A DNA stretch of 64,000 nucleotides, from contig NC_086097.1 of the NCBI RefSeq assembly GCF_963921235.1, positions 24,368,001 through 24,432,000 of the forward strand. The letters are read 5' to 3'. Below the pieces are notes generated by a model. That model ran no database searches. It was given only the letters and a program-made list of their open reading frames with translations, and was not told where the DNA came from. Of this stretch, positions 1,540 to 62,365 are shown piece after piece (positions within the stretch are counted from its first letter, which is position 1; each line of letters begins with the position of its first letter). The DNA comes from Mobula hypostoma. Taxonomy: Eukaryota. A program made the position numbers and the translations under genes.

Positions 1540-2420
1540 CCTACTGAGGAAGGGTATCAAAGCTCATAGTGTGATCTTGGCCAGTTGGGAAAATGAGCTG
1601 AAAAATGGCAGACAGAATTTAATGCAGACAATTGTGAGATGTTGCGCTTTGGGAGGACAAACCTGGGTAAGACTTGTTCAGTGAATGGTAGCGCTCTGAG
1701 GTGTGCAGTAGAGGAAAGGAACCTGGGAATTCAGATCCATAATTCCTTGTAAGTGCCATCACAGATAGATAGGGTTGTAAAGAGAGTTTTCATCACATTG
1801 AATACTGGAGGAACTCAGCAGGTCAGGCAGCATCCAAGGCGAGGAATAAACAGTCCATATTTCAGTCTGAGACCATCCATCATCAGTCCTGATGAAGGAT
1901 CTCAGTCTGAAACGTTGACTGTTTATACTTCTCTATCGATTCCGCCCGACCTGCTGAGTTCCTCCAGCATTTTGTGTGTGTTACTGTGGATTCCCAGAAT
2001 CTGCAGAATCTCTTCTATTTTTTACACATTTTCCTTCATAAATCAGAGCATTGAGTAGCAGGAATTGGGATGCGATGTTGAAGTTGTGCAAGATATTGGT
2101 GAGGCCAAATTTGGAATATTTTTTGAACCTACCCACAGGAAAAATATTAGAAATAGTGAAAGAATACTAAGGAAACTTTCAAAGATTTTGCTGGGTCTTG
2201 AGGACGTACATTATCAGGAAAGGTTGAATTAGTTAGGACTTTCTTCCCTGAGACATAGGAGAATGAGGAGAGAACTTGTAGAGGTATACAAAGCTGTGTT
2301 AGGGGACTATAGATAGTTTAAATACATGCAGGTTTTTTCTCCTGAGGTTGGGTGAGACTGGAACTGGAGGTCATCGGTTTCGTGTGAAAGGTAAAATATT
2401 TAAGGAGAACCTGACGGAGA
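1540..2420 (+). mobile_element. Degenerate CR1 LINE RT 3' fragment, interrupted by a Penelope pLTR piece (~1801-2015)
   Basis: Decayed KWAEKWQ(T)EFNAD.CE, SQIDRVVKR and LVRPNLEY motifs, collinear with the cleaner CR1 at 39791-41800. Confidence 0.8.
1884..1921 (+). ncRNA. Minimal type-I hammerhead ribozyme in a Penelope pLTR
   Basis: cagtc-CTGATGA-aggatctcagtct-GAAACGTT-gactg: stem I cagtc/gactg, CUGANGA and GAAA cores, palindromic ACGU stem III, GUU cleavage triplet. Confidence 0.65.
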
Positions 2421-3249
2421 ACTCAACAACCTAAGGGATTGCTAGGTTACGATCAATTGGTCGATTGACTGAATGAATAAATAAGCAAACAAAAATTAAA
2501 TACTGCAAAAGAGGAACAGTGAGGTAGTGTTCATGGGTTTATGGACTGTTCAGAAATCTGATGGCAGAGGGGTAGAAGCTGTTCCTAAAGCACTGTGTGG
2601 GTCTTCAGGGTCTTGAGGTGGGTACCTCCTCCATGGTGGTAATGACAAGAAACCATGTCCTTTATGGTGAGTGTCCTTCATGATGGATGCCATTTGAGGA
2701 TAATTCTTTTGATGGTAGCACGTTTCTGGGTTGTGGGTTGAAACCAGAATTCCTTGCAGTCACAGGGACAATGTACAAGTTCCACACTCTCAACACCAGA
2801 GGTTGGGATTTAACCTGGGTCTCTGGAGCTACCGCCAAAATTTGCAATTAATGCAATTTGACTGGGGATTAGATTAGCAAAGTTACCTTGGTGCCATGGG
2901 AACAGACTGAATGCAGCCCACGGGCATTTCCAGTCTCTGCAGATCATAAACGACCCAAGGGATAGGGACTGCAGATCGGTTCTCACATCACAAAGAAATT
3001 AGTTGCTTTAAATAGCACTACTACATCCTTGGAATCTCCGGATGTGCTTCACTGTTAGTGAATTACTTTGAAATGTAATCTCTTCAATTTTTTTCCCTTG
3101 GTTTATCTAATGCTACCAAGAGAGGCCATTTAGCTTAATGAGACCACTCTGGCTCCCAGAAGAGAAATCTCATCAGTCCCAATCCCCTTCTACATATTTC
3201 CCAGTTACCCTGGAATATGACAATAGTAAAGCTGCATTTGGAATATAGT

Positions 3250-3439
3250 AACACACATCAAAGTTGCTGGTGAACGCAGCAGGCCAAGCAGCATCTATAG
3301 GAAGAGGCGCAGTCGACGAAGGATCTCGGCCTGAAACGTCAACTGCGCCTCTTCCTATAGATGCTGCTTGGCCTGCTGCGTTCACCAGCAACTTTGATGT
3401 GTGTTGCTTGAATTTCCAGCATCTGCAGAATTCCTGTTG
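3250..3439 (+). mobile_element. Fold-back Penelope pLTR mini-insertion inside a CR1 relic
   Basis: Inverted arms ~3250-3317 and ~3339-3405 plus a 34-nt 3' tail; 13-bp TSD tttggaatatagt at 3237-3249 and 3440-3452. Confidence 0.85.
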
Positions 3440-3509
3440 TTTGGAATATAGTGTTCAGTTTTGGTCACTCTGATATACAAACGTTTGTAGAAACAATCTG
3501 ATTAAGCTG

Positions 3510-4210
3510 GAACAACACACACAAAGTTGAGGAGGAACTCAGCAAGTCAGGCAACACCTTTGGGAGAGGATGAACAGTTGATGTTTCAGACTGAAACCCT
3601 TCATCAGAAGTGAAAAGGAAAGGGTCAGAAGCCAGATTAAGGTGATAGTGGGTGGTGGGAAGAGTACAAGCTGACAGGTGATAGGTTAGGCCAAACTCAG
3701 GTTGAAGGAGCAACATCTCGTATTACATTCAGGTAGCCTCTAACCTGATGGCATGAACATCGATTTCTCTAACTTCCAGAAGTTTCTCCCCTCTTCCGTT
3801 ATTTCTTTTTCCATTCTTCATTCTGGTTCCTCTCTACCCCTTCTCATCTCCTCAACTCCCTCAGGTTCTCCTCCTCCATCCATTTCTCCCATGGTTTACA
3901 GTCCTCTCCTATTGGAATCCTTCTTCTTCAGCCCTTTACCTCTTCTGCCTATCACCTCCCAACTTCTTTCATCACCACTCCCCCACCTACCGACCTTCCT
4001 TCTCACCTGTTCTCACCTATCACCTGCCAGCTGTACTCCTTCCCTCACTCCACCTTCTTATTCTAGCTTCTGTCTGCTTCCTTCCCAGTCATGATGAAGG
4101 GTCATGCCCCAAAACATTAATCGCTTATTCCCCTCCGTAGATACTGAATTTCTACGGCATTTTGTGTGTGTTGCTCAAGATTTCCAGCATCCGCAGAATC
4201 TCTTGTGTTT
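3510..4210 (+). mobile_element. Older Penelope 3' end/pLTR with an inverted 5' piece
   Basis: ctcaggttgaaggagcaacatc...cctgatggcatgaacatcgatttctc, a pyrimidine tract, a decayed hammerhead and the ccagcatccgcagaatctc tail; inverted copy at ~3510-3690. Confidence 0.75.
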
Positions 4211-4578
4211 GTGATAAGTGGAAAAGAGTGCAGAGGAGGTGTCTATGGATGTTACGAGGACTCATGGACATTTGAAAGAGTTTGAGCAGCTTGCTTATTT
4301 TCTCGTCGGAGTTTGGAGAATAAGGAGTGAATTTGCTGAGGTGTATTAAATCATGAGGGTCCATGAACACATTTTTTTCCAGGGCAGAGGATCAAGAACT
4401 AAAGGGCATTAGGTTTAGCGTGGGAGGAGAGAGATTCAGTAGAAAGATGAGGGGCAACCTTTTCACCCAGTAGGTGATTAGTATGTGAAATGAGCTGCCA
4501 AAGGAAGTGACTGAGGCAGGTGCATTAACACTATTTAAAAGGCACTCGGGCAGGTGAACAGATATGAAAGGTTTAGAA

Positions 4579-4658
4579 CAGGGGTTCCCAACCTGGGGTC
4601 CATGGACCCCTTGGTTAATGATAGAGGTCCATGGCATAAAAATGATTGGGAACCTCTG
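4579..4658. mobile_element. ~80-bp hAT (Charlie/Buster-like) MITE inside CR1 debris
   Basis: TIRs caggggttcccaa ... ttgggaacctctg; same family at 32560-32638 and 61316-61396. Confidence 0.8.
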
Positions 4659-5534
4659 GAGTAAAGGAGTATAGGCCAAATGCAGGCACCTGGGACCAGT
4701 TCAGATGGGACCAGCTTAGGTGCCTGGAATGCACTGCTGGAAGTGGTGGTAGAGGCAGATATATTAGACACATTTAGGAGACTCTTAGATAGGCATATGG
4801 ATGAAAGAAAAATGGGTTGTGTAAGAGGGAAAGGTTAGATTGAACGTGGAGAAGTTTTATTTAGGTTGGCACAATAACCAGGGCTGCACTGAACTATACT
4901 GTTCGATGTTCTATGTAAACCACATCAGCTACATAAGGCAGTTTATTGAACATAGGATGTCTATTGCCTGCAGTTTATACCTTTCAGCTGGTGGTCGTTG
5001 TTCCCTTTAAGGCCACAAGGGCATGTACAAGAACATTTCTGACCACTCAGGCAGAGAGAACCATGAACTATTCATTTATGTGACCTGAACCTGACTCAAG
5101 GTCATAAGAGACACACTGTGCTGGTGATTTTTACTCCGGTCCCCAGACTCTATTGACACGAGTCCAGAGCTGAGAAACTTGGCAGCTTTACTTGAGGAGA
5201 ATGGAAACTGATACCAACTTGGGAGAATTGGGATGAAGTCAACTGGGGTCTAGGTTGAAGTCTCCTTGATAATTTCCTACTTGGATCAAGAATTCCTCCT
5301 GCATGAGGAGTAGCATCAGGGTGAACCTCAGGAAGTAGTGTAACTTACATGTGTAGGTTGTTTGCCATTCATCGGGAAGAGCAACTTAGACCCTTGATTG
5401 CAATAAAACATCCCACAGCACTTCAGAGGAGATGGATGAAATTTTAACACGAATGACATATGGGAAAGTGATCAAAGCCTTCATCAAGGACATAAACTTA
5501 GAATTGGAATTAGCTTGTCTTTATTGTTATTTTT

Positions 5535-6215
5535 ATTTTTTCTCAGCTCAAGCTGGTAATACCTGAAGTATGGGCGTAGCCAAGCACACTCATTTTTCAA
5601 TTGCTAGGAATTTTCAGACTATTCCAGTGGTATTTAGTATTGTGGCTTTCTTGGATTTAGATAAATAGTGCAACTTTGGGATGATACCAGTTGTAGATAT
5701 TACTATTGGAATAATGTATACCCTGTTCACGTTCCATAGTCTTTCAGTTTCCTCTTGTAATTCAGCATAATTCAAGTGTTTTTTACTTATTGATTTCTGA
5801 ATGTTATCTGTGCTTGAAATGACAATATCTATTAAGTAAGTTGTTCTTCTTTGTTTCTCCTGTAATATTATTTCTGGATGATTATTATAGATTGTCCTAT
5901 CTGTAATAATAGATTAGTCATATTATAATTTGTATGATTCTGACTCTAAAACTGGACCAGGCTTGCATTTATAGTAAGGTATGTTGTTTTTCATGAGTTT
6001 GTATTTTAAAGCAAAATTTTGGTGAATGAAGTTTGTCACTTGATTGTGCTTGTGCAAGTAATCAGATTGAGTTAAACTGCTGCAGTATCCTGTAATGTGT
6101 TGAACTGTTTCTTCTTTCTCTTGGTATTTTCTGCATTTAGCATCTTGAATTTATTGGTCTTTTATTTTGTGTTAACCACCTGGTCCTGCATTGCCAGAAG
6201 GAACAACTCCTCTTC
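5535..6215 (-). mobile_element. 5'-truncated R4/Dong-clade non-LTR retrotransposon (zinc knuckle plus restriction-like endonuclease)
   Basis: Minus-strand translation gives FLLAMQDQVVNT, a decayed CCHC (KCRKYQEKEETVQHITGYC), YLHKHNQV, a PD..D nuclease region and KATILNTT; same family as 51050-51508; TAA-rich sequence on both sides. Confidence 0.8.
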
Positions 6216-6249
6216 TTCTTCTTCTTATTATTATTATTACATGACTGGA

Positions 6250-6530
6250 GAGGCACGGTAGTGTAGCAGTTAGTATAATTGAGGTTTGATCCCCACCGCT
6301 GTCTGTAAGGAGTATTTTTGTACTCCCCATGACTGCTTTGCTTTTCTCCACATGCTCTGATTTCCTCCCAAATTTCAAAGACATACATTTTAAAGTAAGT
6401 GAGTTGTGGGCAAGCTATGTTGGTCCTGGAAGTGTGGCAACACTTAATTGATATGATTTGATGCAAAATGACACATTTCATTGTATGTTTTGATGTTTCA
6501 ATGTACACGTGACAAATAAAGCTAATCTTT
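6250..6530 (+). mobile_element. V-SINE (tRNA-derived, HE1-like)
   Basis: tRNA-like head ggcacggtagtgtagcagttag, followed by a V-domain-like ttttctccacatgctctgatttcctcccaaatttcaaagac. Confidence 0.65.
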
Positions 6531-6839
6531 ATTGTGACATGTACCGAAATGCAACAGAAATCTTTTGTTACTGTGCCATCCAGAGAGATCATTCCATATC
6601 TAATGACATTGAGGTGGTCAAAAGGAAAACAGAATGCAGACTATGGTGTGGCAATGACAGGAAAAGAGCAGAGTAGGCAGACAAATCAAGTTCAAGGGCC
6701 ATGGCAAGGTGTATTGGGAGATCTTTTAGCACATGACATTCAAGTTTCAGCATTTGGGATCAACTTCAAGAAAGAGAAAGGGTCAGGAACTGTACAGCAT
6801 GGAAATAAGCCCTTTGGCCCAACAACCTGGCACTCAGAT

Positions 6840-7655
6840 CATTAAGACGAACAAGCTGATTGTGGACTTCAGGAAGGGTAAGATGAAGAAACACATACCA
6901 ATCCTCGTAGAGGGATCAGAAGTGGAGAGAGTGAGCAGCTTCAAGTTCTTGAGTGGCAAGATCTCTAAGGATCTAACCTGGTCTCAACATATCGATGTAG
7001 TTATAAAGAAGGCAAGATAGTGGCTATACTTTATTAGGAGTTTGAAGAGATTTGGTATGTCAACAAATAAACTCAAAAACTTGTATAGTTGTACTGTGGA
7101 GAGCATTCTGACAGGCTGCATCACTGTCTGGTATGGGGGGGTGGGGGAGATACTGCACAGGACCGAACGAAGCTGCAGAATGTTGTAAATCTAGTCAGCT
7201 CCATCTTGGGTACCAGTCTACAAAGTACCCAGGATATCTTTAGAGAGCGGTGTCTCAGAAAGGCAGCATCTATTATCAAGGACCTCCAGCACCCAGGGCA
7301 TGCCCTTTTCTCACTGTTACCATTAGGCAGGAGGTCCAGAGGCCTGATGGCACATACTCGGCGATTCAGGAACAGCCTCTTCCCCTCTGCCATTCGATTC
7401 CTAAATGGACATTGAATCTTTGGATACTACTTCACTTTTATTTTTAGTATACAATATTTCCGTTCTTGCATGTCTTTTTAAAATCTATTCAATATACGTA
7501 ATTGATTTATTTGTTTATTTATTATTATTTTTATTTTATTTATTACTATTTTTTCTCTCTCTGCTAGATTATGTATTGCATTGAACTGCTGCTGATAAGT
7601 TAACAAATTTCTCGTCACATGCTGGTGATAATAAACCTGATTCCTATTCTGATGA
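6840..7655 (+). mobile_element. Rex1/Babar LINE 3' fragment
   Basis: LIVDFRK..., VERVSSFKFL, HPGHALFSLLPLGRR and RFRNSLFPSAIRFLN; 3' UTR ends in aataaacctgatt...ctgat repeats. Confidence 0.85.
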
Positions 7656-8459
7656 TTCTAAAGTTCATTCCAACCATCAGGCAGTCATTTACTCAGATCC
7701 TAAAGCGATCCTAACTTTTTTTAATTCTCACAATCCCATCAAATTCCGCCCCCCCCCACCTATTTCTTCCACATATTTACACAGTAGGGGTAAATAAAAT
7801 AATCAGAATAATCAGAATCAGGTTTATTATCACTGACATGTCATGAAATCTGTTGTTTTAAAGTACAGTGCAATCATAAAATGTACTGTAAAGTATAATT
7901 TAAAAATATGTGTGTGTGTATCTATATATAAATAAGTAGTACACGAAAAGAAAGAAAAAAGTAGTGAGGTAGTGTTCATGGATTAATTGTCTGTTCAGAA
8001 ATCGGATGACAGAGGGATAGAAGCTGTTCCCAAAACACTGAGGAGGCTCCTGTACCTCTTCCCTGATGGTAGTAATGATAATTGGGCATGTCCTGTGTGG
8101 TGGGGATCTTTAGTTATGGATGCTGCCTTTCTGAGGCATTGTCTTTTCAACAGTGGTCCAATAACGTCAATATGGAAAGAGACTGGAGCACCCAGTGCCA
8201 GTCAATCTGGTCACAGGGAGAACCTGCAGTCTTCATAGCGACAGCTTTGGAGATCAGAACTGAACCAAGAATGCTGGGCAGTGACGTAGCAGTTTTACTG
8301 GCTAAACTTCGGTGCTATGACATAAGGAGTTAGAGAGATTTAAGGAATGGACTTCTGAGATTGAAACCCAGGAAATAGTAACCATTGTCCCTGAGAAGAA
8401 CTCCATCAGCAGATGAGAAAGAGACAGAAATCGGAGGAGAGCAGAGCTTTAGGACAGGG

Positions 8460-8810
8460 AGGTGGGGGTTGATTGTGGAACGGGTGGGGGCTCTACTAGT
8501 GGTCTTGCTCCTGGATCTGGTCAAGATGGCCATGCTTGGGACAGGCGGCAGTTAGTCGAGGGTTCTGCCAAAGCTAACTGTTTGCCCCTCTTCTGGGCTT
8601 ATGTTCATGCTGAGTGTCCTTAGGGAGGGAGCATGCCGTCACTATGGGCTCAGTGGGGGAGTCCCAGGAATGGTGGGACCCCCATGGAATTGGGTGCTTT
8701 GAAGATGATAGTAACCATATTTTAATTGAAATTGTAAGTAATATTGTAAGTCCCTGATTATTGTGTGTATTTCGTGAGTGAATAAACTTCTGTTGTTTTG
8801 TAAAAATAAA
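8460..8810 (+). mobile_element. L1/Tx1-clade LINE 3' end
   Basis: Frameshifted LLVVLLLDLVKMAM...ANCLPLFWAYVHA..VSL.REHAVTMG..W.P.GI.C..D..NHILI* resembles the Tx1 ORF2 C-terminus; followed by AATAAA and an A-rich end. Confidence 0.55.
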
Positions 8811-10146
8811 CTGGAGCCTAAATCAAACATAAAGAGAACAGAGGACATGAAGGGCTTTGAACGCAAAGATATGGGTTTTAAAATGAAGGGGTAACTGGTC
8901 CAGAAGACAAATAGGAGATGAGGCATGCGTTAGGGTGTGAGCAACGGAGTTTGGAAGGTAAGTGATATGAGGAGGAGGGAGAGATAATATTTCAGGTCAG
9001 TGAGCTTCCACTGGAACTCCTGTCGGGATGCGTGTTAACATCCAGGATGGAGAGAGCGGTAAGGAGAAGAGCAACAGATCACCAGGGACTTGAGATATGA
9101 CCGGACTCATAGTAACATCCCAGCAAGGAGAGAAGATTATAATTAACTATATCTGGACTATGTGGGAAGTAGAAGAATTCTGTCCATTAGAGCATGAGGA
9201 AGTAAGTCAGAATAACCCAGTACTGCTCCTCCATTCTGCTCATGGCTGAACTTAACCTGACCTCAACTCCATGCTCTCCTTAACCTCTGAATCCCAAGAT
9301 GAACAGAAGTCTATCAACTTTGAATATATTAAATGAGAACTCACCGGGTTAGAAAATTCCGGAGTCAAGATCCTCATCTCTCCTCATCTGTACCTTTTGG
9401 GCTCAAATGAGTTTTGACCCAGGCTGCTCGAACTCTCTTCTTTTGATAACTCTTTCATCCCAGGAATCAACTGAGTGAAGCTTTCACCAAATGTTTGCCA
9501 TATAGCTACATCCCTCTGTTTACAAGGAGTCTAAAACCCGGTCTGATTTCACTGATGCTCTTTTGCTTTGTAGCAAGGCTCCCCATACTTTTCTTTATTT
9601 TATTTCGAGATGCAGCATGGTAACTGGCCCATCCAACCCATTGAGTCTGTGCAACCCATGTGGCAAATTAATCTGCTAACTTGTTCACATTTGGAATCTG
9701 GGAGGAAATTGGTAGGTCAAATATGATGGTAGAATATAGTATTAATAGTTAGACTCTTGGCAGTGTGGTGGATCAGAGGGATCTTGGGATCCGAGTCCAT
9801 AGGACACTCAAAACTGCTGCGCAGGTTAACTGTGTGGTTAAGAAGGCATACGGTGTATTGGCCTTCATCAACCGCGGGATTGAGTTTAAGAGCCGAGAGG
9901 TAATGTTACAGCTATATAGGACCCTGGTCAGACTCCACTTGGAGTACTGTGCTCTGTTCTAGTCACCTCACTACAGAAAGGGTGCAGAGGAGATTTACAG
10001 GGATGTTGCCTGGATTAGGGAGCATGCCTTATGAGAATAGGTCGAGTGGAAACAACAGGAATTCTGCAGATGCTGGAAATTCAAGCAACACACATAAAAG
10101 TTGCTGGTGAATGCAGCAGGCCAGGCAGCATCTCTAGGAAGAGGTA

Positions 10147-10288
10147 CAGTCGACGTTTCAGGCCGAGACCCTTCGTCAGGACTAACTGAAGGAAGAGTTA
10201 GTAAGAGATACAATTGACGTTTCAGGCCGAGACCCTTCGTCAGGACTAACTGAAGGAAGAGTTAGTAAGAGATTTACAGTCGACGTTT
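10147..10288 (-). ncRNA. Tandem minimal hammerhead ribozymes (two full cores and one partial)
   Basis: Units start at 10147, 10211 and 10277 (periods 64 and 66 nt); minus strand reads tagtc-CTGACGA-agggtctcggcct-GAAACGTC-gactg. Confidence 0.75.
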
Positions 10289-10654
10289 GTGGACTTGGTT
10301 AAAGTGGTCTTGGCCTTTTTTTCTTGTAGCGACGGAGGATGAAAGGTGACCTGATAGAGGTGTATAAGATGATGAAAGGCATTAATCATGTGGATGGTTA
10401 GAGGCTTTTCCCCAGGGCTGAAATGGCTAGCATGAGAGGGCACAGTTTTAAGGTGCTTGGAAGGAGGTACAGAGCAGGTGTCAGGGGTAAGTTTTTTACA
10501 CAGAGAGTGGTGAGTGGGTGGAATGGGCTGCCGACAATGGTGGTGGAGGCAAATATGATAGGATCTTTTAAGACACTCCTGGATAGGTACTTGGAGCTTA
10601 GAAAAATAGAGGGCTATGGGTAACCCTAGATATTTTTTAAAGTAAGTACATGTC

Positions 10655-11222: not shown

Positions 11223-11289
11223 TATGGGTTAGCATTGTGGGCTGAAGGGCCTGTATTATATTGTATGTTTTCTATGTTTCTATGAAATA

Positions 11290-12932: not shown

Positions 12933-13049
12933 CGAATAATTTATTCTATTTTTTTTTACCCATATGTCAGATGTGATCTCAGACCAGAGTGCACCTTCTT
13001 CCCCAGACCTGGTTTCAAAGAAAAGCTGTGGAATTCTCCCCAGCATCCA

Positions 13050-27111: not shown

Positions 27112-28750
<1,639 letters not shown>

Positions 28751-28764
28751 TATATAACGTATAG

Positions 28765-51508: not shown

Positions 51509-53529
51509 ATTGTTAAAAACATTGTTAAATAATAACAATGATAATAACAAATATATATTCAATAAATATTGAAAACATAGATGAAGAGGTTGTGGGAACA
51601 GTTCAGTGATGGGGCAAGTGAAATTGAGTGAACTTATCTCCTTTGGTTCAAAAGCCCAATGGTGAAGGGTAATAACTGTTCCTGAAGCTGGTGATGTGGA
51701 TCCTGAGGCTCTTGTACCTCCTTCCTGGTGGCAACAATGAGAAGAGAGCATGACCTGGATGCTTTGAGTTCTTGAGGATGGATGCTGAAGAACGGATGAT
51801 GGTGACAGGTTCTTGACAACAGTACTTCTAGTCGGTGCGCTCAAAGGTGGGGACGGCTGTACTGAGATGGACCGGGCTGTATCCATTATTTCTTGTAGGC
51901 ATTTCCCTTCAAGCGCATTGGGGTTTCCATGCCAGGTTGTGATGCAACTAGTCAATATACTATTCACCACACCTATAGAAGTGACTCAGGGCAGATCCCC
52001 TGAAATGATAACACGAAGGAGTTTAAAGTTGCTTATCCTCTCCACCTCTGATACCCTGATGAGGGTTGTCTCATGGGCCTCTAGTTTCCTCCTCCTGAAG
52101 TAACAGTCATCTCCTTGGTCTTGCTGACATTGAGTGAAAGGTTGTTATTGTGGCACCACTCAGCCAGATTTTCCTCCCTCCTTCATCACTACCTTTGATT
52201 CGGCCAATGACAGTCGTGTCTTCAGCAAATTTAGATATATCATTGTAGCTGTGCTTAGCTTCGCAGTAAGAAGTATAAAGCAAGTAGATCAGGGGGCTAA
52301 GCACACAGCCTTGTGATGCACCTGTGCTGGTGGAGATTGTGGAAGAGATGATGTTGCTAATATCAACTGTCTAGAGTCTGCAAGTGGAAATGTAGGATCC
52401 AATTGCACAAGAAGGTATTGAGTCCTAAGTTTTGAAACTTATTGATTAGTTTTGATGGGATGATGGTATTGAATGCCAAGCTGTAGTCAATGGAGACACC
52501 CTGATGTCTGCACCTTTGCTGTCCAGATATTCCAGGGTTGAGAGAAGAGCCAATTAAGTGGCATCTGCTGTTGACCTGTTGTGATGGTAGGCAAATTGCA
52601 AAGGATCCAAGTTGGTTTTCAGGCAAGAGTTGATACGTTTCATCATCAACCTCTCAAAACATTTCATCACAGTGTATGGGAGTGCTACTGAGTGAGTCAT
52701 TGAGACAGGCTACCACCGGTATAATTGAAGCCCATTTGAAGCAGATGGGTCAGACTGCCAAAGTGTGAGTTTAAAGATATTGGTGAACATTTCAGCCAGT
52801 TGATCAGCATAGGTATTCAGTACTTGGCCAGGTAGCCCATCTGGGTTCACCCTCATAAAGGTTGCTCTCATGTCAGCTTCAGAGACTGAAATCACGGAGT
52901 CATCAGCTGGCGAGGGTGGGGGGTGAGCCTGGGAGTTTGTGAAGGTGCCTCCATGTTTTGATGATCAAAGCGAGCATGGAAGGCATTGATTTGGGGAAGT
53001 GCAGTGATTTATGAGAGAAATTGGGAGAGGAATCATTGACTATTTCACAGAGAAATGGCAATGAGTGTGGTAATCGAGGAGTATATCATGACAATGGATC
53101 TTAACCCTGTCCTTATTCTTCATTCATAGAATTAAACATTTAAATTGAAACCTCTATTATCCCTTCTGAATGAGCTGCCTCTTGATTTCATTCTGCTTGT
53201 AGACCTGCATATTTTCAGGCAGTTTAGCAACGTCCTTTTGAAAGCTGCTTTGGACATCTGCCCTTATCTCTCCCTGGCATGATGTCAAATTTTATTTGAT
53301 AAAGCTCCTGTGAGAGAGCTTGAGAGCTTGGTGTGTTCTGCAATGATAAAGGCCTTACATAATTCAAGCGGTTGTTACTGTTCACTCTGTAGAAAGAACA
53401 TTCAGAGCACTGAAGCAATGGCCCAGGCAATGAGCACCCTGTTCCTAAAGGATATTTTTCAAAGGTACAGGGGATAGTGGGGGGAGGGAGAGTAGACAAA
53501 AGAAGCCACTAACTCTCATCCGAAAGAGA

Positions 53530-54545
53530 CATAGAACATAGTACAGAACAGACCCTTCAGCCCACAATGTTGTTCCGACCTTTTAACCTACTCCCAAGTT
53601 CAAGCAAATGCTTCTCTCCCACATAGCATTCCATTTTTACTTCATCCGTATGCCTTCTTAGGAGTCTTTTAAATGTCCCTAAAGAAAGTGTCTCTAAACC
53701 ACCACCCCTCCAGGGTATTCCATGCACCTACCACACTATGTGTAAGGAACTTATCTCTGACATTCCCTCTATACTTTCCTTCAATCACCTTAAAATTATC
53801 AGAATCAGAATCCGGTTTATTATTGCCGCCATGAATTGTGAAATTTGCTAACTTAGCAGCAGCAGTTCAATGCAATGCAAGATAATATAGAAGAAGAAAA
53901 AATCCATTGGGAGTTCTGTTGCCACACAAGTCGCGTCAAGATGCCCTGGAAGTCGCTTGCCCCTTGTGTTAACTATTTCCACTCTGGGAAAAAGGTGCTG
54001 GCTATCCACTCTATCAGTGCATCTTATCATTTTATACACCTTCATGAAGTCACTTCTCATCCCCTTTGCTTCAAAGAGAAAACCCCTAGCTCACTTAAAC
54101 TTTGCCTACGAGACATGATCTCCAATCCAGGCAGCATCCTGGTAAATTTTCTATTCACCCTCTCTGAAGCTTCCACATCCTTCCTATAATGAGATGACCA
54201 GAACTGAACACAACACTCCAAGTGTGGTCCAATCAGAGTTTTATAAAGCTGCAACATTACCCCACAGCTTTGAACTCAATCTCCTGACTAATGAAGGCCA
54301 ACATACCATACACATTTGTAACCAGCCTGTCAACTTCCATGGCAACTTTGAGGGATCTATGGACATTGACCCCAATTTCCCTCTGTTCCTTCACTGCTAA
54401 GAATCCTGCTAATAACCCTGTATTCTGCCTTCAAGTTCGACTTTCTAAAGTGCATCACTAAACATTTTACCGGGTTGAACTCCATCTGCCTCTTCTCAGC
54501 CCGGCTCTGCAGCCAATGAATGTTCCATTCTAACTTATGATAGCC
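53530..54545 (-). mobile_element. CR1 3' fragment with a small Rex-tail insert
   Basis: QMEFNPVKC, LQLYKTLIGPHLECCVQFWS, MRSDFMKVYKMIR. Confidence 0.8.
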
Positions 54546-55636
54546 TTGTGAGAGAAATGCCGGATAACTCACTAGTCAAGCAGCATTTATGAACAGTCAG
54601 CTTTCTGGGTTATAGGCACAACTGATTTTGCAGATGCTTGAAATCTGGAGCAACGTACACAAAATACTTAAGGAACCCAGCAGGGCAGGCAGCATCTATG
54701 GAGAGAAATAAACTGTCAACATTCAGGGATGATGAAGGGTCCTGGACTGAAACATCAGCTATTTATTCCCCCTCCAAGATGCTGCCTGAACTGTTGAATT
54801 CCTCCAGCATTTTGTGTGTGTTACACAATATTTCGGGTTACCAGAAGTTTTGCGGAAGGATCGCCAAACCAAAACGTTGACCGCTTTCTCTTTCCGCAGA
54901 AGCTACTTGACGAGCTGAGCTCCTCCAGCATTTCAGTTTATGCATCAGATTCCAGCATCTGTAATTTTTTATTTGTTTGTCACTTTGCCTCAGGACATGG
55001 AATGTACCTGTCGAGTGTTTGCAGAGACGTCCTGTGAGTGGTATTGGCTTAGTTTATTAGTGGTTCATGTACCAAGACACAGTGAAAAGCTGTTTGCATG
55101 CCATCCAGAGGTATAAACACAAAATGCTGGAGGAACTCAGCAGGTCAGGCAGTACCTATGGGGAGAAATGAACAGTTGACATTTTGGGCCAACGCCCTTC
55201 ATCAAGATCGGGGGTTTATGTTTGTTACTCTAGATTTCCAGCATCTGCAGAATCTCTTTGTTCAAGACCAGTGAAGTAGTTAACAGAGAAAGAATGTGGA
55301 ATGTAGTGTTACAGTTGCAGAGAAAGAGCAATGTAGAAAAACAATTAAAGTGAAAGGGCCATGACGAGGTAAATTCAGAGATCAAGAGTCCATTTTATCT
55401 TACTAGGGAACAATTAAAGAATGTAATTACGGCAGGATAGAAGCTGTTCTTGACTGAGCCTGGTGGTACATGTTTGCAGGATTTGTATCTACTACCTTAC
55501 GGGAGAGGGGAGAAAAGAGAAGTACTGGGATGAAGGGCCTCGAATATGCTGGCTGATTGATCATGGTTTTAAATGCTCTACCCCTCCCCCACCCCCCACC
55601 GAGGACTGTGGAGGCTCGGTAAATGAAGTTCCATAA

Positions 55637-56039
55637 TGTTACTGTCCAATACGCCCATTACACTGCTGGCATTTAGGGCAACAATGAAGGTCCTCCCTCT
55701 CCAGTGGTGTTCAGACCTTTCTTTATCATGTCAATAGCTTCCTCTTGGTTTTCACTACTCTCATACAAGTCCAGGTGGAGACTCAGGAATACCGTCACAC
55801 TCAGATGTAGAAGGATTCTTCATTGCTGTTTCCTTAACAATTCTGTTTTACCAGTGAGCTTCTAGACCTGGAGAATCGGTGGACCACTCTTAGTCTGTCC
55901 TTTACACTTTGACCTGTTTGGCATGGGTGATCCTACCAAGAGCCAAAGCATAAAGCCTTGACTGCAGCCAACAGAGCTCTCTGGGTCATTGGGACGCAAA
56001 AGCCTCTAAACCACGACAAGGTTGTAGTCCTCTTGGAGA
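55637..56039 (-). mobile_element. 403-bp RTE-derived non-autonomous retroposon with a 12-bp TSD
   Basis: Minus-strand 5' ccttgtcgtggtttagaggcttttgcgtcccaatgacccagagagc...ggtaggatcacccatgccaaacaggtc resembles RTE 5' UTRs; TSD gaagttccataa at 55625-55636 and 56040-56051. Confidence 0.75.
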
Positions 56040-56389
56040 GAAGTTCCATAAAAGGGATGTGAATTCTTTAAAGCTTAGCAAACTTATCTATGTGGATTTG
56101 GCATAGGAACGGGCACTATTACCATCAGGTAGGAGGTACAGTAGTTCCTAACGCTTTCAAAGAGCACAATAGTGTAGTCTAACCAGGGTTTCGCGGAGCT
56201 GCAATACATTTGAGGTGACCCAGTTTACGAAGGGAGCTGACAAATTATTTGATGTGACAAAGAGTTCAATGGTAATTAGAAAAGTGCAGATGTGGTTAGA
56301 AGTGAGAGGTGTGTAAAGAGCATGCCAACAGTATGGGGCTGAACTGTGACTGAATTGCGAGTAGCCTTCACTGGAGTACGGCAGAAGGG

Positions 56390-56650
56390 AATAGTGAGAT
56401 AATGGTTAAGTTACTCAGTGAATGATCTATAAACCTGGATTAGAGACTCGAGTTCAAATCCTACCTCAGCAGTAGAGGAATATAAAATCCAGTTGATTGG
56501 AAACCTGGTATCAGTAATAGTGATCACTAAAATACTGAATTATCACTGAAAACTCATCTGCTGCACTAATCCCTTAAAGGGAACAAAACCAGGGCTTTCA
56601 CCCACCTCCAGCAATATGAGTGACCTTCAAATGGCCTTGCAAGGTGTCCA
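56390..56650 (+). mobile_element. Old tRNA-derived SINE
   Basis: B-box-like gagttcaaatcc; body tcagtaatagtgatcactaaaa...aaaactcatctgctgcactaat. Confidence 0.45.
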
Positions 56651-56699
56651 ATTCTAGCTATGTAACGTCACCATTGATTGCCACAATTGAGGAAGGCAC

Positions 56700-57260
56700 C
56701 GACTCCAGGCATTGAAAGGCCTAGATAGAGTGGACATGGAGAGGGTGTTTCCTACAATGGCGAAAGGGCACAGCCTCAGAGTAGAAGGACATTCCTTTGG
56801 ATCATTGATTAGGAGGATTAGTAACTCAATAAATGTATCCAATTTATAGGACTTTATTCCTTTGGACATGGAAGATTGAGGAGCGGCCTGATGGGGGGTA
56901 TGTAAGATAATGAGGGGATTTGATAAGTTAAAAACAAATTCTCTTTTTTTTCCAGGAAGAGAGTGCTAAAAGTAGAAGAACTTAGGTTTAAAGTCAGAGG
57001 CAGGAAATTTCAAGAAATTTTGAAAGAGACATGACGGCCAGTTTCTTCACGTAAAGGGTATGCATATTTGGAATGAGCAGCTAGAAACGGGGTTGAGGAG
57101 GGCACAACAGCTGCAATTAAAAGCCGTCTAGATATTTATGAGGACTGAAGATCTTTGGAGGCTATTGAGCAAACACAGGCAGGTGAGATGAGCTTGCTGG
57201 ACAGTGCAGTCAGCATGGATAGGTTGGGTCAAAGGGCCTCTTCCCAGGAGGAATGACTCT
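56700..57260 (+). mobile_element. Old CR1 3' fragments
   Basis: Decayed LKGLDRVDMERVFP, GLYS...RLR..L and FFT.RV..IWNE motifs, then a CR1 3' UTR. Confidence 0.65.
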
Positions 57261-57504
57261 GATTAAAAAGGTCAGTGGGGAGCTGAGATAGAACCTGAGA
57301 CTGGAAAACATTATCAAATCTCCAGTGCTCAACAGAGAAACAATGATTGCAAAAGATTAAACTTTGCAACATACAAATAATCCTGACCTGCCTCGGTGGT
57401 GTTGTGTTCCCCCATGTTAAGGTAGCTTCAGTAACAGAAATTTGCCCTTACAAAGTCCGCATATCACCAATGAAACTTTTGAGATAAAAGTTTGATTTTA
57501 GTGT

Positions 57505-59190
57505 CATAGAACACTACAGAACAAACCCTTCAACCTATCTAATCCATGCTGACCTGGTATTCTGCCTAGTTCTATCGACCTGCACCTGGACCATATCCCT
57601 CCATACTCCTCCCATCCATGAACTTATCCAAACGTCTCTTAAATGTTGCACTAGAATATTTCACATCCACCATATCCACTATTTGTGCTTTCAGCTCATT
57701 TCACACTCTCACCACTTACTGAGTGAAGAAGTTCCTCCTCATTATCCCCTTAAACATTTCACCTTTCACCCTTAACTTATGGCGTCTAGTACTGGGCTCA
57801 CCCAACCTCAGTGGAAAAAGTCTGCCTGCATTTATCTTATCTATACCCCTCATAATTCTGTATACTTCTATCAAATTTTCCCTCATTTCCTATGCTCCAG
57901 AGCATAAAGTCCCAACCTATTCAACCTTTCCCTATAACTCAGGTCCTCAAGTCCCAGCAACATCTTTGTAAAATTTCTCTGTACTCTTTCAATCTCTTGA
58001 TATATTTCCCGTAGGCAGGTGACCACAATACTCCAAATTATGCTTTACAACTTCAACATGGCATCCCAATTCTTGTACTCATTTCTTTGATTTACGACGA
58101 CCAATGTAACAAAAGATCTCTTTAAAAACACCATCTACCTGTGACACACACACAATGCTGGTGGAACGCAACAGGCCAGGCAGCATCTATAGGAAGAAGT
58201 ACAGTCAACGTTTCGGATCGAGACCCTTTGTCAGGACTAACGGAAAAAAGAGATAGTAAGAGATTAGAAAGTGGGGGGGGGAGGGGAGACCTGAAATGAT
58301 AGGAGAAGACGGGAGGGGGAGGGATGAAGCCAAGAGCGGAGAAGTTGATTGGCAAAAGGGATACAAGGCTGGATCCAAGAGCTGAGAAGTTGATTGCAAA
58401 AGGGATACAAGGCTGGACTTCTTCCTATAGAGAAGTGTCTCGACCTGAAACGTTGACTGTATTTCTTCCTATAGTTTCATCCCTCCCCCTCCTGTCTTCC
58501 CCTATCATTTCAGATCTCCCCCTCCCCCTCCACTTTCAAATCTTTTACTATCTCTTCTTTCAGTTAGTCCTGACGAAGGGTCTCGACCTGAAACGTTGAC
58601 TGTACTTCTTCCTATAGATGCTGCCTGGTCTGCTGCGTTCCACCAGCATTTTGCGTGTGTTGCTTGAATTTCCAGCATCTGCAGATTTTCTCGGGTTTGC
58701 ATTTTAAAATCTACCTGTGACACTTCTTTTGTGGAATTATGGATCTGTACTCCCAGATCTCTCTGATGTAATGCATTTCTCAATGCCCTACCACTCATAA
58801 ACCATAAGACACGGGAACAGAATAAGGCCACTTGGCCCATTGACTCTGCTCTGCTATTCCATTATGGTTGCTCTGTCGTCCCTCTCAATTCTATTCTCCT
58901 GGCTTCTCCCTGTAACTATTGAAGCCTTTACTGATCAAAAACCTATCAACCCCTGCTTTAAATATACCCAGTGACTTGGCAATGAATTCCACAAATTCAC
59001 CATCCTCTGGCTAAAGAAATTTCTCCTCATCCCTTTTCTGAAGAGATGCCCTTCTATTCTAAGGCTATGTCCTCTGGTCCTTGGCTCCCCGCTATGGAAA
59101 ACATTTTTTCCATATCTGCTCTGTATAGGCCTTTCCATATTCGATAGGTTTCAATGTGATCCCCCTTCATTCTTCTAAACTCCAGCGAGT
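57505..59190 (-). mobile_element. CR1 3' fragments (~57505-58795 and ~58795-59190)
   Basis: ALRNALHQRDLGVQIHNS and NFFSQRMVNLWNSLP; tails at ~57505 and ~58797. Confidence 0.8.
58148..58708 (+). mobile_element. Fold-back Penelope pLTR insertion with a 15-bp TSD; intact hammerhead core at 58565-58602
   Basis: TSD atctacctgtgacac at 58133-58147 and 58709-58723; tagtc-CTGACGA-agggtctcgacct-GAAACGTT-gactg. Confidence 0.85.
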
Positions 59191-60199
59191 TTCCTGTGTA
59201 AGTCCCACCCTGGTTTGTCCTCTGGTTTGTCTGCCCTGATCTGTCTACCCTGGATTGAAATGACTGAGTATATCGGTAACAGACCGAGCAGAGGGTTTCA
59301 CTAACATCTCCCCCAGCAACACAAGGCTGATAATGACAGTATTTTCAACCCAGTCAAGACTTGATATTATCTGTTTCAGGCAACAGTGATGAGTACTGGC
59401 TGCACAGATGATCTGCAAACAGCCCTTTTAATTCAGTGACAGCTCGTCCCTAGAGGCTTGTGTTTTATTTTTCCCTTTCTATGTCTCCCTGTCTCTCTGT
59501 CTTTCTCTCTCCCTCCTTCTGTTCACAGTCACAGCTGCACAGCATGGACCCTCCCAGTCCGACACTAATGTATCTCTTCATTAAAAAAATACAAATCTGA
59601 CAAGCAATATCGCAGCGGCTTGGATCGCGGTGTTACTGCCTACTCCGCACTATTTTTTTTAATAATAAGAACAGTGGCCTCACTTTGGCTGAAGCCCCTC
59701 AGCAGATTTTCTTTCCTCAAATAATGAGCCAACAGAAATAACTACTGCCATTGTGGGTGAGGCAGAATTCTCCAGCTCCTTCCACAGCTCATTAGAGGAA
59801 AGTGGAGTTGACTTGCGTATGTGTGTAGTCTTACCTGCGCTGCCTCTGGGAAAACGTTGATGTATTGGAGAGGGACAGATGTGACTAGGAAGGACATTTT
59901 CAGTACTTCGTCTTTGAGAGCATTGTTGGTTCTCATTTAATTAGAGGAGAGAAGTCAGATGAGACATAACACATTATTAATGGCCTTGGTAAAGTTTACA
60001 GAGGCAGCTCTGACTTCGTTATAACACGTAAGCGTGCTGGAGGAACTTTGCAGGTCAGTCAGCATCTGTAGAGGGAAATAGACAGGTGATGTTATAGATC
60101 GAGACACTTCATCCGGACTGAAAGAACAGAGTATTAAAAAAATAGTGAAGGGAAGACTTGGAGCAACAACTGGCAGGTGATAAGTGGATCCAGGTGCAG

Positions 60200-60520
60200 C
60201 AAGGTAGTGTGGTGGTTAGTGTAATGCTTTACAGCGTCAACAATCTGATCAGTGTTTACCTTTTGCCTCTGTCTGAAAGGAGTTTGTACGTTCTCCCTGT
60301 GCTGAGTGGGTTTTCTCCAGGTGCTCCAGTTTCCTCCCACATTCCAAAGACCTACAGTTTAGTTAGTGAGTTGTGGGCATGCTATGTTGGCGCCAGAAGC
60401 ATGGAGACACTTGCCAGCTGTCATACAACACATCCTCGGACTGTGTTGGTCGTTGGCACAAGTGACGCATTTCACTGTCTGCTTCACTTTTCCACACACA
60501 TGCGACAAATAAAGCTAATT
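60200..60520 (+). mobile_element. V-SINE inserted in a Penelope pLTR relic
   Basis: ggtagtgtggtggttagtgtaatgctttacagc head; V domain gggttttctccaggtgctccagtttcctcccacattccaaagac. Confidence 0.75.
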
Positions 60521-61315
60521 GTACCTCGATCTCATCTCAGTTGAGGGTGGGATGAATGACAGATGGAGGAGGGAAGAGTGGGAATAGCAACAAGTGGCTG
60601 TGAGGTGATCTGTGGAGGCACCCAAGGGCTGTGGATGATGGGATCTGATAGGACAGGAAGGTGCAGCATGGAACTCTGTGAGGGAGCTGGGGTGAGCAGG
60701 CAGGAGGACAAAGGAGGAGAGGAAGCTGCGGCAGGTTGGGCAGATGGAGTGGGTGGAAAGGTGGAAAGAAACAAGGTGTTGTCATTGTTACCTTTACACT
60801 CAAATGTTTCAAAGCTCCCTGGCTGGTCATCTGCCTTCAGACTTGGTGGGGAAAGAAAAAGTCAGGTAAAATGTTCCCCTCTTTGCTCTTGAGATCCTGA
60901 TAAGGATAACAGGTTTGAACGTACCCCGTGTTGCCATAAAGGACAACATTTGAGCCCAGTTTCCACTAGGCATGTACTTTGCACGCATCTCGGGTCAATG
61001 GTTTTGTTACTGGGCAGGTAATCTCAAGGCTCTGGTGAACTGGAGACATGGTGCAATGGGAAAACCCACAGTTACAACATTAGTTCCCACTTTCACAAAA
61101 CCTCATACCAAGTGTTGTAAGTGTTGTAACACTCATGTGTTGCCAGATCCATCATCTGTCCCATCAGTCCAAATGAAGGGTCTCGACTTCAAATGTTGAT
61201 TGTCCGTTTCTTTCTACTGATGTTTCCTGACCTGCTGAGTTCTTCCAGCAGTTGGCTTTTTGCTCCAGTCTCCATCTTAACCACCTCAATCAGCCTGTTT
61301 CGTCACTTTGTATAA

Positions 61316-61396
61316 CAGGGGTTCCCAACCTATTTTTATGCCATGGACCCCTACCATTAACCAAAGGGTCCACGGACACCAGGTAGGGAACCGTTG
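61316..61396. mobile_element. ~80-bp hAT MITE (third copy)
   Basis: caggggttcccaacc ... ggtagggaaccgttg; internal sequence matches 4579-4658 in reverse orientation. Confidence 0.75.
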
Positions 61397-61444
61397 CTCT
61401 TGGATATAAATTACTCCAAACTGGGTGTTGAGAACCCACCTCAT

Positions 61445-62365
61445 AAACAAAAAAAAACGGATTCAGCAGATGCTGGAAATTCAGAGGAACGCATCCAATG
61501 TGCTGGAGGAACTCAGCAGGTCAGGCAGCATCCATGGAAGGGAATAAACTGTCAATATTTCGGGCCGAGACCTTTCATCGGGATTGGAAAAGAAGGGGGC
61601 AGAAGCCAGAATAAGAAGTTGGGGGGGAAGAGAAGGAGTACAAACTGACAAGTGATATGTGAAACCGAGTGAGGGGGAAGGTGGTTATGTGGGGGAGGGG
61701 GGATGAGGTGAGAAGCTGGAAAATGATAGGTAGGAGAGGTAAAGGGCTGAAGAAGGAATCTAATAAGAGAGGGCAGTGGACCATGGTAGAAAGGGAAGGA
61801 GGAAATGAACCAAAAGGAGGTGATGGGCAACAGAGGAGAATTGAGCTAAGAAGTAAACCAGAAAGGGGAATGGATATAGAGAGAAGCAGGGAGGAAGGAG
61901 TAATCACTAAAAGTAAGAGTAATTGATACTCATGCCATCAGGTTGGAGACTACCGTGATGGATTATGAGGCGTTGCTCCTGCACACTGAGTTTGACCTCA
62001 CCTATCTACCTGTCAGTTTGTACTCTTCCCCCTCCATCACCGTCTTATATTGGTTTCTCTCCCCTTTCTTTCCAGTCCTGATAAAGTCTTGGCCTGTAAT
62101 GTCGACTGTTTATTCCTTATGTACACAGTCTTTGTGTTCGGGCAATATCCTCCCACATTTCCCTCCCTTATTGCTTGTACATTGTGACGAAGATGCAACG
62201 TAAAGATTTTTACTCCCTCATGTTGTGAGATGGATGTAAGAAATGAAAGAAATTCTACTTCTAATTCTAATAATTCTCCACAAATGCTGCCTGACCTGTT
62301 GAGTTTCTCCAGCACTTTATGTGTGTTGATCAAAATTTCCAGCCTCTGCAGAATCTCTTGTGTCT
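61445..62365 (-). mobile_element. Penelope pLTR/3' end with an inverted piece
   Basis: gcagatgctggaaattc..., a purine tract and catgccatcaggttggagactacc; inverted copy at ~62000-62365. Confidence 0.7.

Follow-up and report, generated by a model that had tools for sequence, protein, structure and literature searches.

The stretch of DNA analysed here (the window) is 64,000 nt of contig NC_086097.1 of the ray Mobula hypostoma. A profile made from 10 window copies and searched at a cut-off of E<1e-3 found 41 copies or fragments of a ~160-nt 3' end of a Penelope-like element (PLE), 22 on the + strand and 19 on the - strand. The family unit consists of a pyrimidine tract, a minimal hammerhead motif, a downstream hairpin and an optional tail. 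In shuffled controls (n=5 windows) the best profile E was 0.048-1.1, and an edit-distance search with the 1884 copy gave 17 matches at <=10 edits versus 0-1 in each of 10 shuffles. The 38-nt motif was overlapped by at least 10 columns in 36/41 copies and by at least 30 columns in 26/41; the latter number agrees with the roughly 25 copies counted in a first-pass annotation of this DNA. Its six intact or near-intact motifs were all found where it had placed them, and its 14 decayed sites coincided with profile matches in every case (14/14). The family and its best-preserved motifs are as follows.

1800..62758, both strands: dispersed family of 41 copies or fragments, from profile matches
1884..1921, + strand: fully intact motif (U17, G10.1.U11.1), within an inverted repeat (arms 1794-1882 and 1890-1978)
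3575..3612, - strand: core-intact motif, stem III non-palindromic, one stem I mismatch
10147..10184, - strand: fully intact motif, C17 at 10152, the sole intact motif without an antisense twin
10211..10248, - strand: core-intact motif, stem I 3' arm mutated (2.1-1.1 mismatch)
12797..12834, + strand: fully intact motif, predicted cut after C12829, predicted to pair with its twin in read-through RNA
24938..24975, - strand: motif with core and G10.1-C11.1 intact, stem III non-palindromic, stem I 5' arm overlapping an acceptor-like YAG
58565..58602, + strand: fully intact motif (U17), predicted to pair with its twin in read-through RNA

The motif agreed with the published minimal hammerhead consensus (Cervera & de la Peña 2014, PMC4209133). 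The column majority matched the invariant core (C3 U4 G5 A6 G8 A9, G12 A13 A14 A15.1, U16.1, H17) throughout; all core bases were kept in 7/41 copies, and core plus stems in 4/41. The extra base between A9 and stem II was A in all 29 copies covering that column. Stem II was short (4 bp), with 87.5% of cells paired in 22 aligned copies. Its closing pair G10.1/11.1 was G.U in all four fully intact copies and in ~79% of the depth of whole-genome run X1, and G-C in 8 of the 22 aligned copies. The CG palindrome at 15.2-16.2 was present in 5/7 core-intact copies and lost to CpG decay in the others, and there was no stable helix III. The form of the motif first proposed left out the extra A and the G.U closure of stem II in intact copies. 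Its identification as a minimal type-I, dimer-type hammerhead was borne out by the match to the 2014 consensus on a Penelope-like terminal sequence, and the cut predicted after C12829 is at the correct position for C17. The motif at 3575-3612, previously labelled decayed, kept all 11 invariant core bases, with its palindrome broken as at 24938; the one at 10211-10248, previously labelled intact, is intact in its core and mismatched at the core-proximal stem I pair.

Could the motif resemble a hammerhead by chance alone, within the tail of an ordinary SINE or LINE? Rfam at E<=1 returned no hammerhead family, only four rows, all of them miRNA-type hairpin matches below the gathering score. Covariation among the decayed window copies that were gap-free over the motif (22/41) showed no excess over shuffles (79.1% paired versus 79.3%). 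Copies that decay within a single family would not be expected to covary. The 11 invariant core bases, the extra base 9a, the stems, the palindrome and the U-rich 5' flank, however, match the consensus at the published PLE position, and we regard a chance resemblance as extremely unlikely. Judged by its sequence, the motif is the hammerhead signature of PLE ends known since 2014.

The published motifs in metazoan PLE pseudo-LTRs (pLTRs; PMC4209133) share with the ray family the U-rich 5' flank, the short stem I, CUGANGA plus an extra base, stem II, GAAA, the 2-nt palindrome and UH. Most of them, too, are single motifs scattered on truncated elements, pairs on opposite strands are spaced 100-700 bp apart, and the layout of the Acropora Neptune example is very close to that of the ray family. 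The ray motif differs in its short stem II (4 bp) with G.U closure in the young subfamily, although a few published examples are also G.U, and cartilaginous fish are absent from Table S1 and Fig. S3 of that paper.

Coding remnants of the element were found at two places.

25188..25960, - strand: 5'-truncated, frameshifted PLE ORF remnant with RT thumb, CX3CxxC linker and GIY-YIG with internal CxxC
49981..50740, + strand: second, more decayed PLE ORF remnant, whose 3' end stops where the hammerhead core would begin

The first remnant showed 79% identity to a Hypanus RT-thumb/GIY-YIG protein, and the nearest Mobula protein showed 81%. A C-terminal GIY-YIG with CCHH after the RT was visible in the window ORF, with a Pfam score below the cut-off (E 0.014); in a Rhincodon relative GIY-YIG passed the cut-off and RVT_1 was also present. 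A PDB sequence search with a full-length relative returned nothing significant. The hammerhead motif lies 213 nt downstream of the ORF end at 25188 and follows ORF ends at ~3776, ~36930 and ~61900 as well; among four further ORF-end remnants, the pyrimidine tract came next in all and the motif in three. The motif placed directly downstream of a GIY-YIG ORF at 24939 is thus downstream, but 213 nt past the end of a frameshifted, 5'-truncated remnant. Carriage by Penelope pseudo-LTRs was likewise right as to the Penelope-like terminal sequence; here, however, the copies are 3' ends of truncated insertions, and a direct pseudo-LTR pair around a full RT-EN ORF was absent from the window, which holds only the two truncated remnants.

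The CX3CxxC linker was present in the window ORF and its relatives and fits the CX2-5CxxC diagnostic of Neptune/Nematis. The element fits a Neptune/Nematis type, a clade suggested by one linker motif in a window without the RT core. EN+ PLEs of this type (Craig et al. 2021, PMC8557442; Arkhipova et al. 2013, PMC3846280) also have GIY-YIG with internal CxxC, the linker, 5' truncation, head-to-head inverted copies, a one-sided tail and target duplications. They differ from the ray case in that the window is without a full-length element and Neptune and Nematis are taken together, the placement being by linker motif and not by tree.

Head-to-head arrangement was found for 30/41 copies in 15 pairs, against 7.6 expected and 0 in 20,000 permutations. 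Target duplications of 13, 14 and 15 bp were found in 3 of the 14 insertions tested, and the maximum in 500 random pairs was 9. The three insertions and the antisense motifs in them are listed below.

3237..3452, both strands: young head-to-head twin insertion, 13-bp target duplication, junction truncating both motifs, only the right end tailed
12431..12946, both strands: single young insertion of antisense twin and sense copy, 14-bp target duplication, arms of 141 nt, 94% complementary
12505-12542, - strand: motif of the antisense twin with A15.1 changed, part of the 12431..12946 insertion
58133..58723, both strands: single young insertion of antisense twin and sense copy, 15-bp target duplication, arms of 185 nt, 91% complementary
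58202-58239, - strand: motif of the antisense twin with G8 changed, part of the 58133..58723 insertion

Head-to-head twins and a one-sided tail of 30-40 bp are described PLE signatures. The repeats are of PLE origin, as seen in the linker and GIY-YIG remnant, the twin insertions, the one-sided tails and the target duplications of 13-15 bp. In the Anolis Poseidon element PAc (Frangieh et al. 2024, PMC11167929), which also carries a minimal hammerhead and a tail, cleavage and extension take place on both target strands, and this fits the twin insertions in the ray. PAc differs in belonging to another clade without the linker finger, and protein-assisted cleavage was measured there, while the ray family is known from sequence alone. 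None of the 41 alignments (0/41) began within 3 columns of the predicted cut site. The junction at 3315 fits the cut site via a 4-nt microhomology, about chance level.

The core decayed like its flanks. In the window copies, 243/271 core positions and 672/751 flank positions matched (p=1.0); this flank set omitted two subfamily-diagnostic columns, and with a wider set including both (929/1091) the core was slightly more conserved (p=0.06). The first-pass annotation had named a core no more conserved than neighbouring sequence as evidence against its own model, and this is what the window copies showed at p=1.0, with p=0.06 for the wider flank. At CpG columns of the motif, 84/89 changes were of deamination type. 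In X1 contigs, the inactivating change G8>A (8.4%) was no rarer than CpG changes at 15.2, 16.2, 17 and 1.1 (7.1-8.5%) and of similar frequency to those at a downstream CpG (8.9 and 11.2%); these genome-wide fractions are depth-weighted contig sums from the rows listed, with some differences uncounted and intronic sense copies pooled with the rest. Run X5 was alike. In a run guessed to be RNA (the RNA-guess run), CpG decay of the motif was lower (1.7-3.3%), so that expressed copies were on average more intact than genomic ones. Neither the window copies nor the whole-genome contigs gave any indication that the core is under selection in either direction.

The first-pass annotation had proposed that dispersed same-strand cores, at about one copy per 2.5 kb, could meet in long pre-mRNAs and cleave as double hammerheads. 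The motif is of dimer type, cores are identical within one subfamily, and the repeat occurs in contigs of the RNA-guess run (8,341 contigs) and in annotated ray protein models. Fully intact motifs, however, occur at 1 per 16 kb (4/41 copies). Those on the + strand are 10.9 and 45.8 kb apart, each with an antisense twin just upstream, and the - strand has one fully intact motif and one neighbour with a stem I mismatch. Three of the four fully intact motifs adjoin an antisense twin, and folding favoured long hairpins over the ribozyme shape by 31-68 kcal/mol. Even the isolated motif was 2.7-4.2 kcal/mol against its own hammerhead shape, so that small gaps carry little meaning. With two free copies of 38 nt, the double hammerhead came to -10.5 to -11.1 kcal/mol, two separately folded monomers reached -20 to -22, and the best dimer of inactive shape reached -29 to -30; these energies leave out tertiary contacts, proteins and co-transcriptional order. 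With no sign of selection on the core and no host exon found in the window, we judge pairing of dispersed cores very unlikely; fully intact same-strand motifs are 11-46 kb apart, and the idea of several cores pairing within a single pre-mRNA found no support.

Of 441 open frames, the 261 of at least 68 aa were scanned with Pfam, which gave only RT, a Tc1 transposase and two weak matches, and no host gene. The weak matches were ALKBH8_N on a retroelement-like frame and PEMT below the cut-off. A crude exon finder gave 13 candidates in the window; 10 of them and 2 other frames were scanned without a convincing match. The best-looking candidate, 25983-26051, was dropped, as its donor is the antisense of a PLE fragment.

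Cutting of host RNA by the family is unlikely because most copies are mutated or lie beside a blocking mirror-image copy, and we infer that cleavage is absent in cells. In published tests the PLE hammerhead monomer was inactive and dimers were weak. The Anolis motif was cleaved only with protein, with no RNA-seq ends at the site, and one of nine Xenopus dimers was cleaved. A rise in the RNA/DNA depth ratio from ~0.06 over the motif to ~0.11 downstream of 12850 was rejected as a sign of cleavage, since starts are not visible in contigs and the subfamilies diverge in that part. Ends did not accumulate at the cut site in the contigs either, although contigs are unable to reveal them. A search of sequencing runs with 5900-9700 listed no RNA run, which says nothing about expression.

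We consider it very probable that the repeats as a whole are neutrally decaying 3' ends of an amplified ray Neptune/Nematis-type PLE, with twins that give hairpins and not a ribozyme network. A hugely amplified Neptune/Nematis-type Penelope-like retrotransposon of rays would leave its 3' ends behind; insertions would be heavily 5'-truncated, and therefore mostly the 3' end would be copied. One insertion event would usually yield two head-to-head copies, and the inserted copies would decay neutrally, chiefly by CpG deamination. Twins would pair in host read-through RNA, and the family would therefore be a source of double-stranded hairpins rather than a working ribozyme network. Any importance of the motif would be confined to RNA of the transposon itself, where it would act in tandem transcripts or aided by the protein that the element encodes, a role suggested by the literature on other species.

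As a complement to this explanation, the main effect on host RNA might be exerted by hairpins and splice sites and not by cleavage, with Alu-like, ADAR-edited twins and with the tract and the stem I AG serving as an acceptor. Splicing would also swap a stem I arm, as in D. virilis Penelope. We hold this reading to be possible, though tentative. A candidate intron was noted next to the first ORF remnant.

24973..25185, - strand: possible pLTR intron of 213 nt, pyrimidine-rich, suggested by a donor-like GT at the ORF stop and an acceptor-like AG in stem I

Two annotated ray proteins (P0011, P0002) pass into or out of the element at precisely the acceptor-like or donor-like position, although these are predicted protein models only, and the published end of the D. 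virilis intron maps to helix I. The high share of copies in inverted pairs (30/41) agrees with the hairpins, and a lizard Penelope is heavily edited (PMC5625713). A>G at >=2% was found at 7 places in the RNA-guess run versus 2, 3 and 3 in DNA runs, reaching 9.2% at 12846 and 7.9% at 12848 against 0.2-1.2% in DNA, a comparison of contigs only, from different RNA and DNA samples, with the kind of run guessed. However, T>C, expected from antisense arms, was not raised (4 places versus 6, 6 and 8), nor was A>G at 12880 and 12900, and G at the 12848 position is also a DNA variant among window copies. From the head-to-head twins one would expect rays to have a large, Alu-like supply of double-stranded RNA.

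One array in the window brings two cores close together on the same strand.

10135..10288, - strand: direct tandem of 2.4 units of 64 nt at 91% match, the window's only natural pair of cores close together on one strand

Such rare direct tandems might be working double hammerheads, similar to small retrozymes, with the 10211 core cleaving the 10147 copy after C10152. The required pairings are present (5 bp of stem I across units, the 4-bp palindrome and stem II), the 10211 core could serve as the enzyme half on the 10147 copy, and short joints that go back at the motif were found in contigs of three runs. The array also fits the sequence criteria of a 2026 preprint on retrozymes (Li et al.), with units from 51 bp. 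The active shape was, however, 14-25 kcal/mol above the ensemble in five contexts, the unit ends resemble slippage between the two similar pyrimidine stretches flanking the motif, no 64-nt joint was among the 15 of 57 contig joints listed, and eight of nine Xenopus dimers stayed uncleaved. We consider a working tandem quite improbable. It is the one array of tandem units with a hammerhead, and one of its two cores has the stem I mismatch. Non-LTR retrozymes (Cervera & de la Peña 2020, PMC7229834; Li et al. 2026 preprint) also carry type-I hammerheads in tandem units, are proposed to derive from PLE ends, and were reported by the preprint as hammerhead tandem repeats in one chondrichthyan. They differ in forming arrays whose units mostly measure 150-450 nt, in hammerheads that are often canonical and in having circular RNAs, whereas 39/41 ray copies are not in direct tandem.

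What is new here is the lineage and the density, and not a mechanism; motifs of this kind have been known since 2014. No paper on this hammerhead family was found in the literature on rays, and exact scans with the degenerate motif gave 0 matches each in metagenome and viral contigs. The claim of a very high-copy family held, with 41 copies or fragments in the window and abundance in whole-genome contigs. Summed depth over single-piece depth gave ~3e4 to 1e6 copies, which is a bracket and not a copy number. Should the window be typical, rays would provide dated copies of a single minimal hammerhead in numbers of tens of thousands or more, and genomics alone could then test whether PLE hammerheads ever cut in vivo. 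It is improbable, in our view, that the hammerhead load of this ray lineage is among the densest known in vertebrates and that a minority of twinless or short-tandem copies also cuts host transcripts in cis, refolded or bound by protein; if it were so, twin insertion, A-to-I editing and stem I splicing would keep the remaining copies silent. The density of fully intact motifs, estimated from the four in the window, was ~60 per Mb (95% range 17-160), against ~4.5 per Mb derived from a published count in axolotl and far above the ~4,000 motifs per genome in coelacanth and ~9,000 in X. tropicalis (PMC4209133).

The hammerhead motif dispersed over the window is real and was correctly identified in the first-pass annotation. 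The six motifs that it named have the sequences it described, and the sites that it called decayed coincide in 14 of 14 cases with matches of a profile built from 10 window copies of the ~160-nt repeat, the 3' end of a Penelope-like element (PLE). Searching the window with this profile at a threshold of E<1e-3 gave 41 copies or fragments, 22 on the + strand and 19 on the - strand, while the best E in five shuffled windows was 0.048. The 38-nt motif was overlapped by 36 of the 41 copies, and at least 30 motif columns were covered by 26. No Rfam model detected the hammerhead motif in a search of the window. An older, diverged subfamily, in which stem I and stem II differ, has left remnants at 42792-42971, 39390-39502 and 46117-46172, again head-to-head; the stretch at 42877-42971 (E 0.033) fell short of the cut-off and was left out of the copy count.

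The motif is composed of stem I of 4-5 bp, CUGANGA, an extra A, stem II (4 bp, loop of 4 nt), GAAA, the palindrome CG, U and H17. This layout agrees with the consensus that Fig. S3 of PMC4209133 (Cervera & de la Peña 2014) gives for minimal hammerheads, and cartilaginous fish are absent from that figure. The kind, the minimal hammerhead of PLEs, is already known, and the ray family adds a member. Our literature search found no account of this PLE hammerhead family in rays; hammerhead tandem repeats in one chondrichthyan are mentioned in the accessible text of a 2026 preprint.

All 11 invariant bases were kept in 7 of the 41 copies (1884, 3575, 10147, 10211, 12797, 24938 and 58565). The stems were also kept in four (1884+, 10147-, 12797+ and 58565+), in each of which stem II is closed by G.U. 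These four motifs correspond to a density of 62 fully intact motifs per Mb (95% Poisson 17-160), compared with about 4.5 per Mb in axolotl, a figure for canonical motifs, and hence only roughly comparable, that we derived from a count of 126,247 (PMC7229834) and a genome of 28.21 Gb (2026 preprint).

Thirty of the 41 copies sit in 15 head-to-head pairs within 1.5 kb, and the 41 copies therefore represent roughly 26 insertion events. When strands were permuted, the mean number of pairs was 7.6, and 15 was reached in 0 of 20,000 trials. In most pairs a tail makes one end longer. Target duplications of 13, 14 and 15 bp were found in three of 14 insertions tested (3237/3440, 12431/12933 and 58133/58709), against a maximum of 9 bp among random pairs (n=500); the other 11 had none above background. 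Head-to-head inversion of copies, and a tail of 30-40 bp that may be present or absent, are among the PLE features described in PMC3846280 and also PMC8557442, and the window insertions likewise show head-to-head copies and a tail. The insertion at 3237-3452 placed a second, opposite-strand copy, its twin; one reading of the junction has this inverted copy begin precisely where cutting is predicted. Four nt of microhomology with core bases 5-8 leave the junction ambiguous, and this one case is at about chance level. The young twin insertion 58133-58723 contains a 44-nt direct tandem of two copies (95%) at 58330-58417.

Two remnants of the PLE ORF were present in the window:
25188-25960, - strand: ORF remnant upstream of the 24938 motif
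49981-50740: second ORF remnant, located by tblastn

In tblastn the first splits into 25960-25319 and, in another frame, 25310-25188; it is therefore frameshifted, and it is without the RT core. A CX3CxxC linker and a GIY-YIG domain with an internal CxxC are visible in it, features that mark Neptune/Nematis elements according to Craig et al. 2021 (PMC8557442). Pfam GIY-YIG on the window frame (E 0.014) was under the cut-off, which the Rhincodon relative, a protein that has RVT_1 as well, does pass. Among 603 candidates, the remnant at 25235-25915 (-) had nine relatives, including those in Mobula hypostoma (81% and 73%) and Hypanus sabinus (79% and 68%) and, more remotely, three sharks (57-65%), a coral (35%) and a frog (25%). 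From these relatives, the window probably derives from a myliobatiform ray. At 24938, 4086, 37228 and 61549 the motif lies 3' of an ORF end, with a pyrimidine-rich spacer of 210-330 nt between.

For the 24938 motif, on the - strand, the spacer has a donor-like GT at one end, where the ORF stops (25185), and an acceptor-like AG within stem I (24973) at the other; these are also the points at which two predicted ray proteins, P0002 and P0011, exit or join the element. Judged from these signals, 25185-24973 (-) is a possible pLTR intron, whose removal would alter stem I of the hammerhead. The arrangement recalls the D. virilis intron, which ends at helix I as described in PMC4209133. Annotated isoforms of three ray host genes (P0002, DIPK1C-like; P0005, chitinase-domain protein; P0010, STARD3NL) consist partly or wholly of PLE ORF or terminal repeat, by either exonisation or mis-annotation.

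The first-pass annotation further proposed that dispersed same-strand cores in pre-mRNA could pair as active double hammerheads. Host RNA is unlikely to be cut in this long-range way, given the spacing, the twins and the unfavourable folds. The intact + strand motifs are spaced 10.9 and 45.8 kb apart, and all but one of the four intact motifs lie immediately downstream of an antisense twin, with arms of 89 nt (78%), 141 nt (94%) and 185 nt (91%). By nearest-neighbour estimates, made without an active-ribozyme control, the hammerhead-shaped fold with 450 nt of upstream context cost 31, 68 and 61 kcal/mol for the three twinned motifs, 10 kcal/mol for the untwinned 10147 copy, and 2.7-4.2 kcal/mol for isolated motifs. 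The isolated young motif is predicted to prefer a hairpin pairing core bases 5-8 with the palindrome and C17, and for two free copies the double-hammerhead shape came to -10.5 to -11.1 kcal/mol, versus -20 to -22 for separate monomers. Published assays point the same way: minimal PLE hammerheads showed no cleavage as monomers and low cleavage as dimers or trimers (PMC4209133), those of Anolis cleaved only with protein and gave no RNA-seq ends at the site (PMC11167929), and one of nine Xenopus dimers was active (2026 preprint). The single close same-strand core pair in the window is a 64-nt tandem (10135-10288), in which the 10211 core could in principle cut after C10152; the modelled active shape lies above the ensemble by 14-25 kcal/mol. 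The search for host exons in the 64-kb window found none, which is still compatible with an intronic position.

Among window copies the core was no better conserved than neighbouring sequence, an outcome that the first-pass annotation had itself held to speak against its proposal. Non-CpG core positions had the majority base in 243/271 cells, compared with 672/751 in the downstream hairpin with two subfamily-diagnostic columns omitted (p=1.0) and 929/1091 in the wider flank (p=0.06). The CpG columns of the motif kept the presumed original base in only 120/209 cells, with 84 of 89 changes of the deamination type. Covariation in the motif showed no excess over shuffles among 22 window copies.

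Contig records from DNA sequencing runs X1 (97,003), X5 (57,860) and X14 (19,423), and from X22 (8,341), a run guessed to be RNA, were placed on 12750-12950; variant fractions are depth-weighted contig sums from the variants listed, with some differences uncounted. In X1, the inactivating G8>A reached 8.4%, versus 7.1-8.5% at other motif CpGs and 8.9/11.2% at the downstream CpG, and X5 was similar. Decay was stronger overall in X14, where G8>A (9.3%) was below the other CpGs (13-26%), a difference due in part to a smaller number of X14 copies having a CpG at that place. Among the variants listed in X1, none of a core A was at 2% or more, while the flanks hold many subfamily differences; active lineages therefore seem to retain the hammerhead core. 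Position 11.1 is U in the young subfamily (about 79% of X1 depth; 12821-12822), which removes the CpG on the catalytic G12; G12>A was then just 3.6%, versus 7-8.5% at other CpGs.

A>G at 12846 and 12848 was 9.2% and 7.9% in X22 versus 0.2-1.2% in the three DNA runs, which come from different samples, and T>C did not rise in X22. This is a weak hint of A-to-I editing, of which lizard Penelope is a known major target (PMC5625713).

Self-similar sequence made up 44% of the window, which also contained many shorter remnants of non-LTR retroelements throughout and the following longer elements:
27111-28751: Tc1-like transposon with inverted ends of 435 bp (95%); its transposase frame (Pfam HTH_Tnp_Tc3_2, DDE_3) spans 27722-28519
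19366-20712 and 40523-41893: long non-LTR retroelement RT frames (Pfam RVT_1)

We take the two RT frames to be CR1-like. The A-rich 2.5 kb at 47470-49981, without a self-match, is possibly a remnant of another retroelement; Pfam gave no convincing match for its lysine-rich 121-aa frame (48297-48659).
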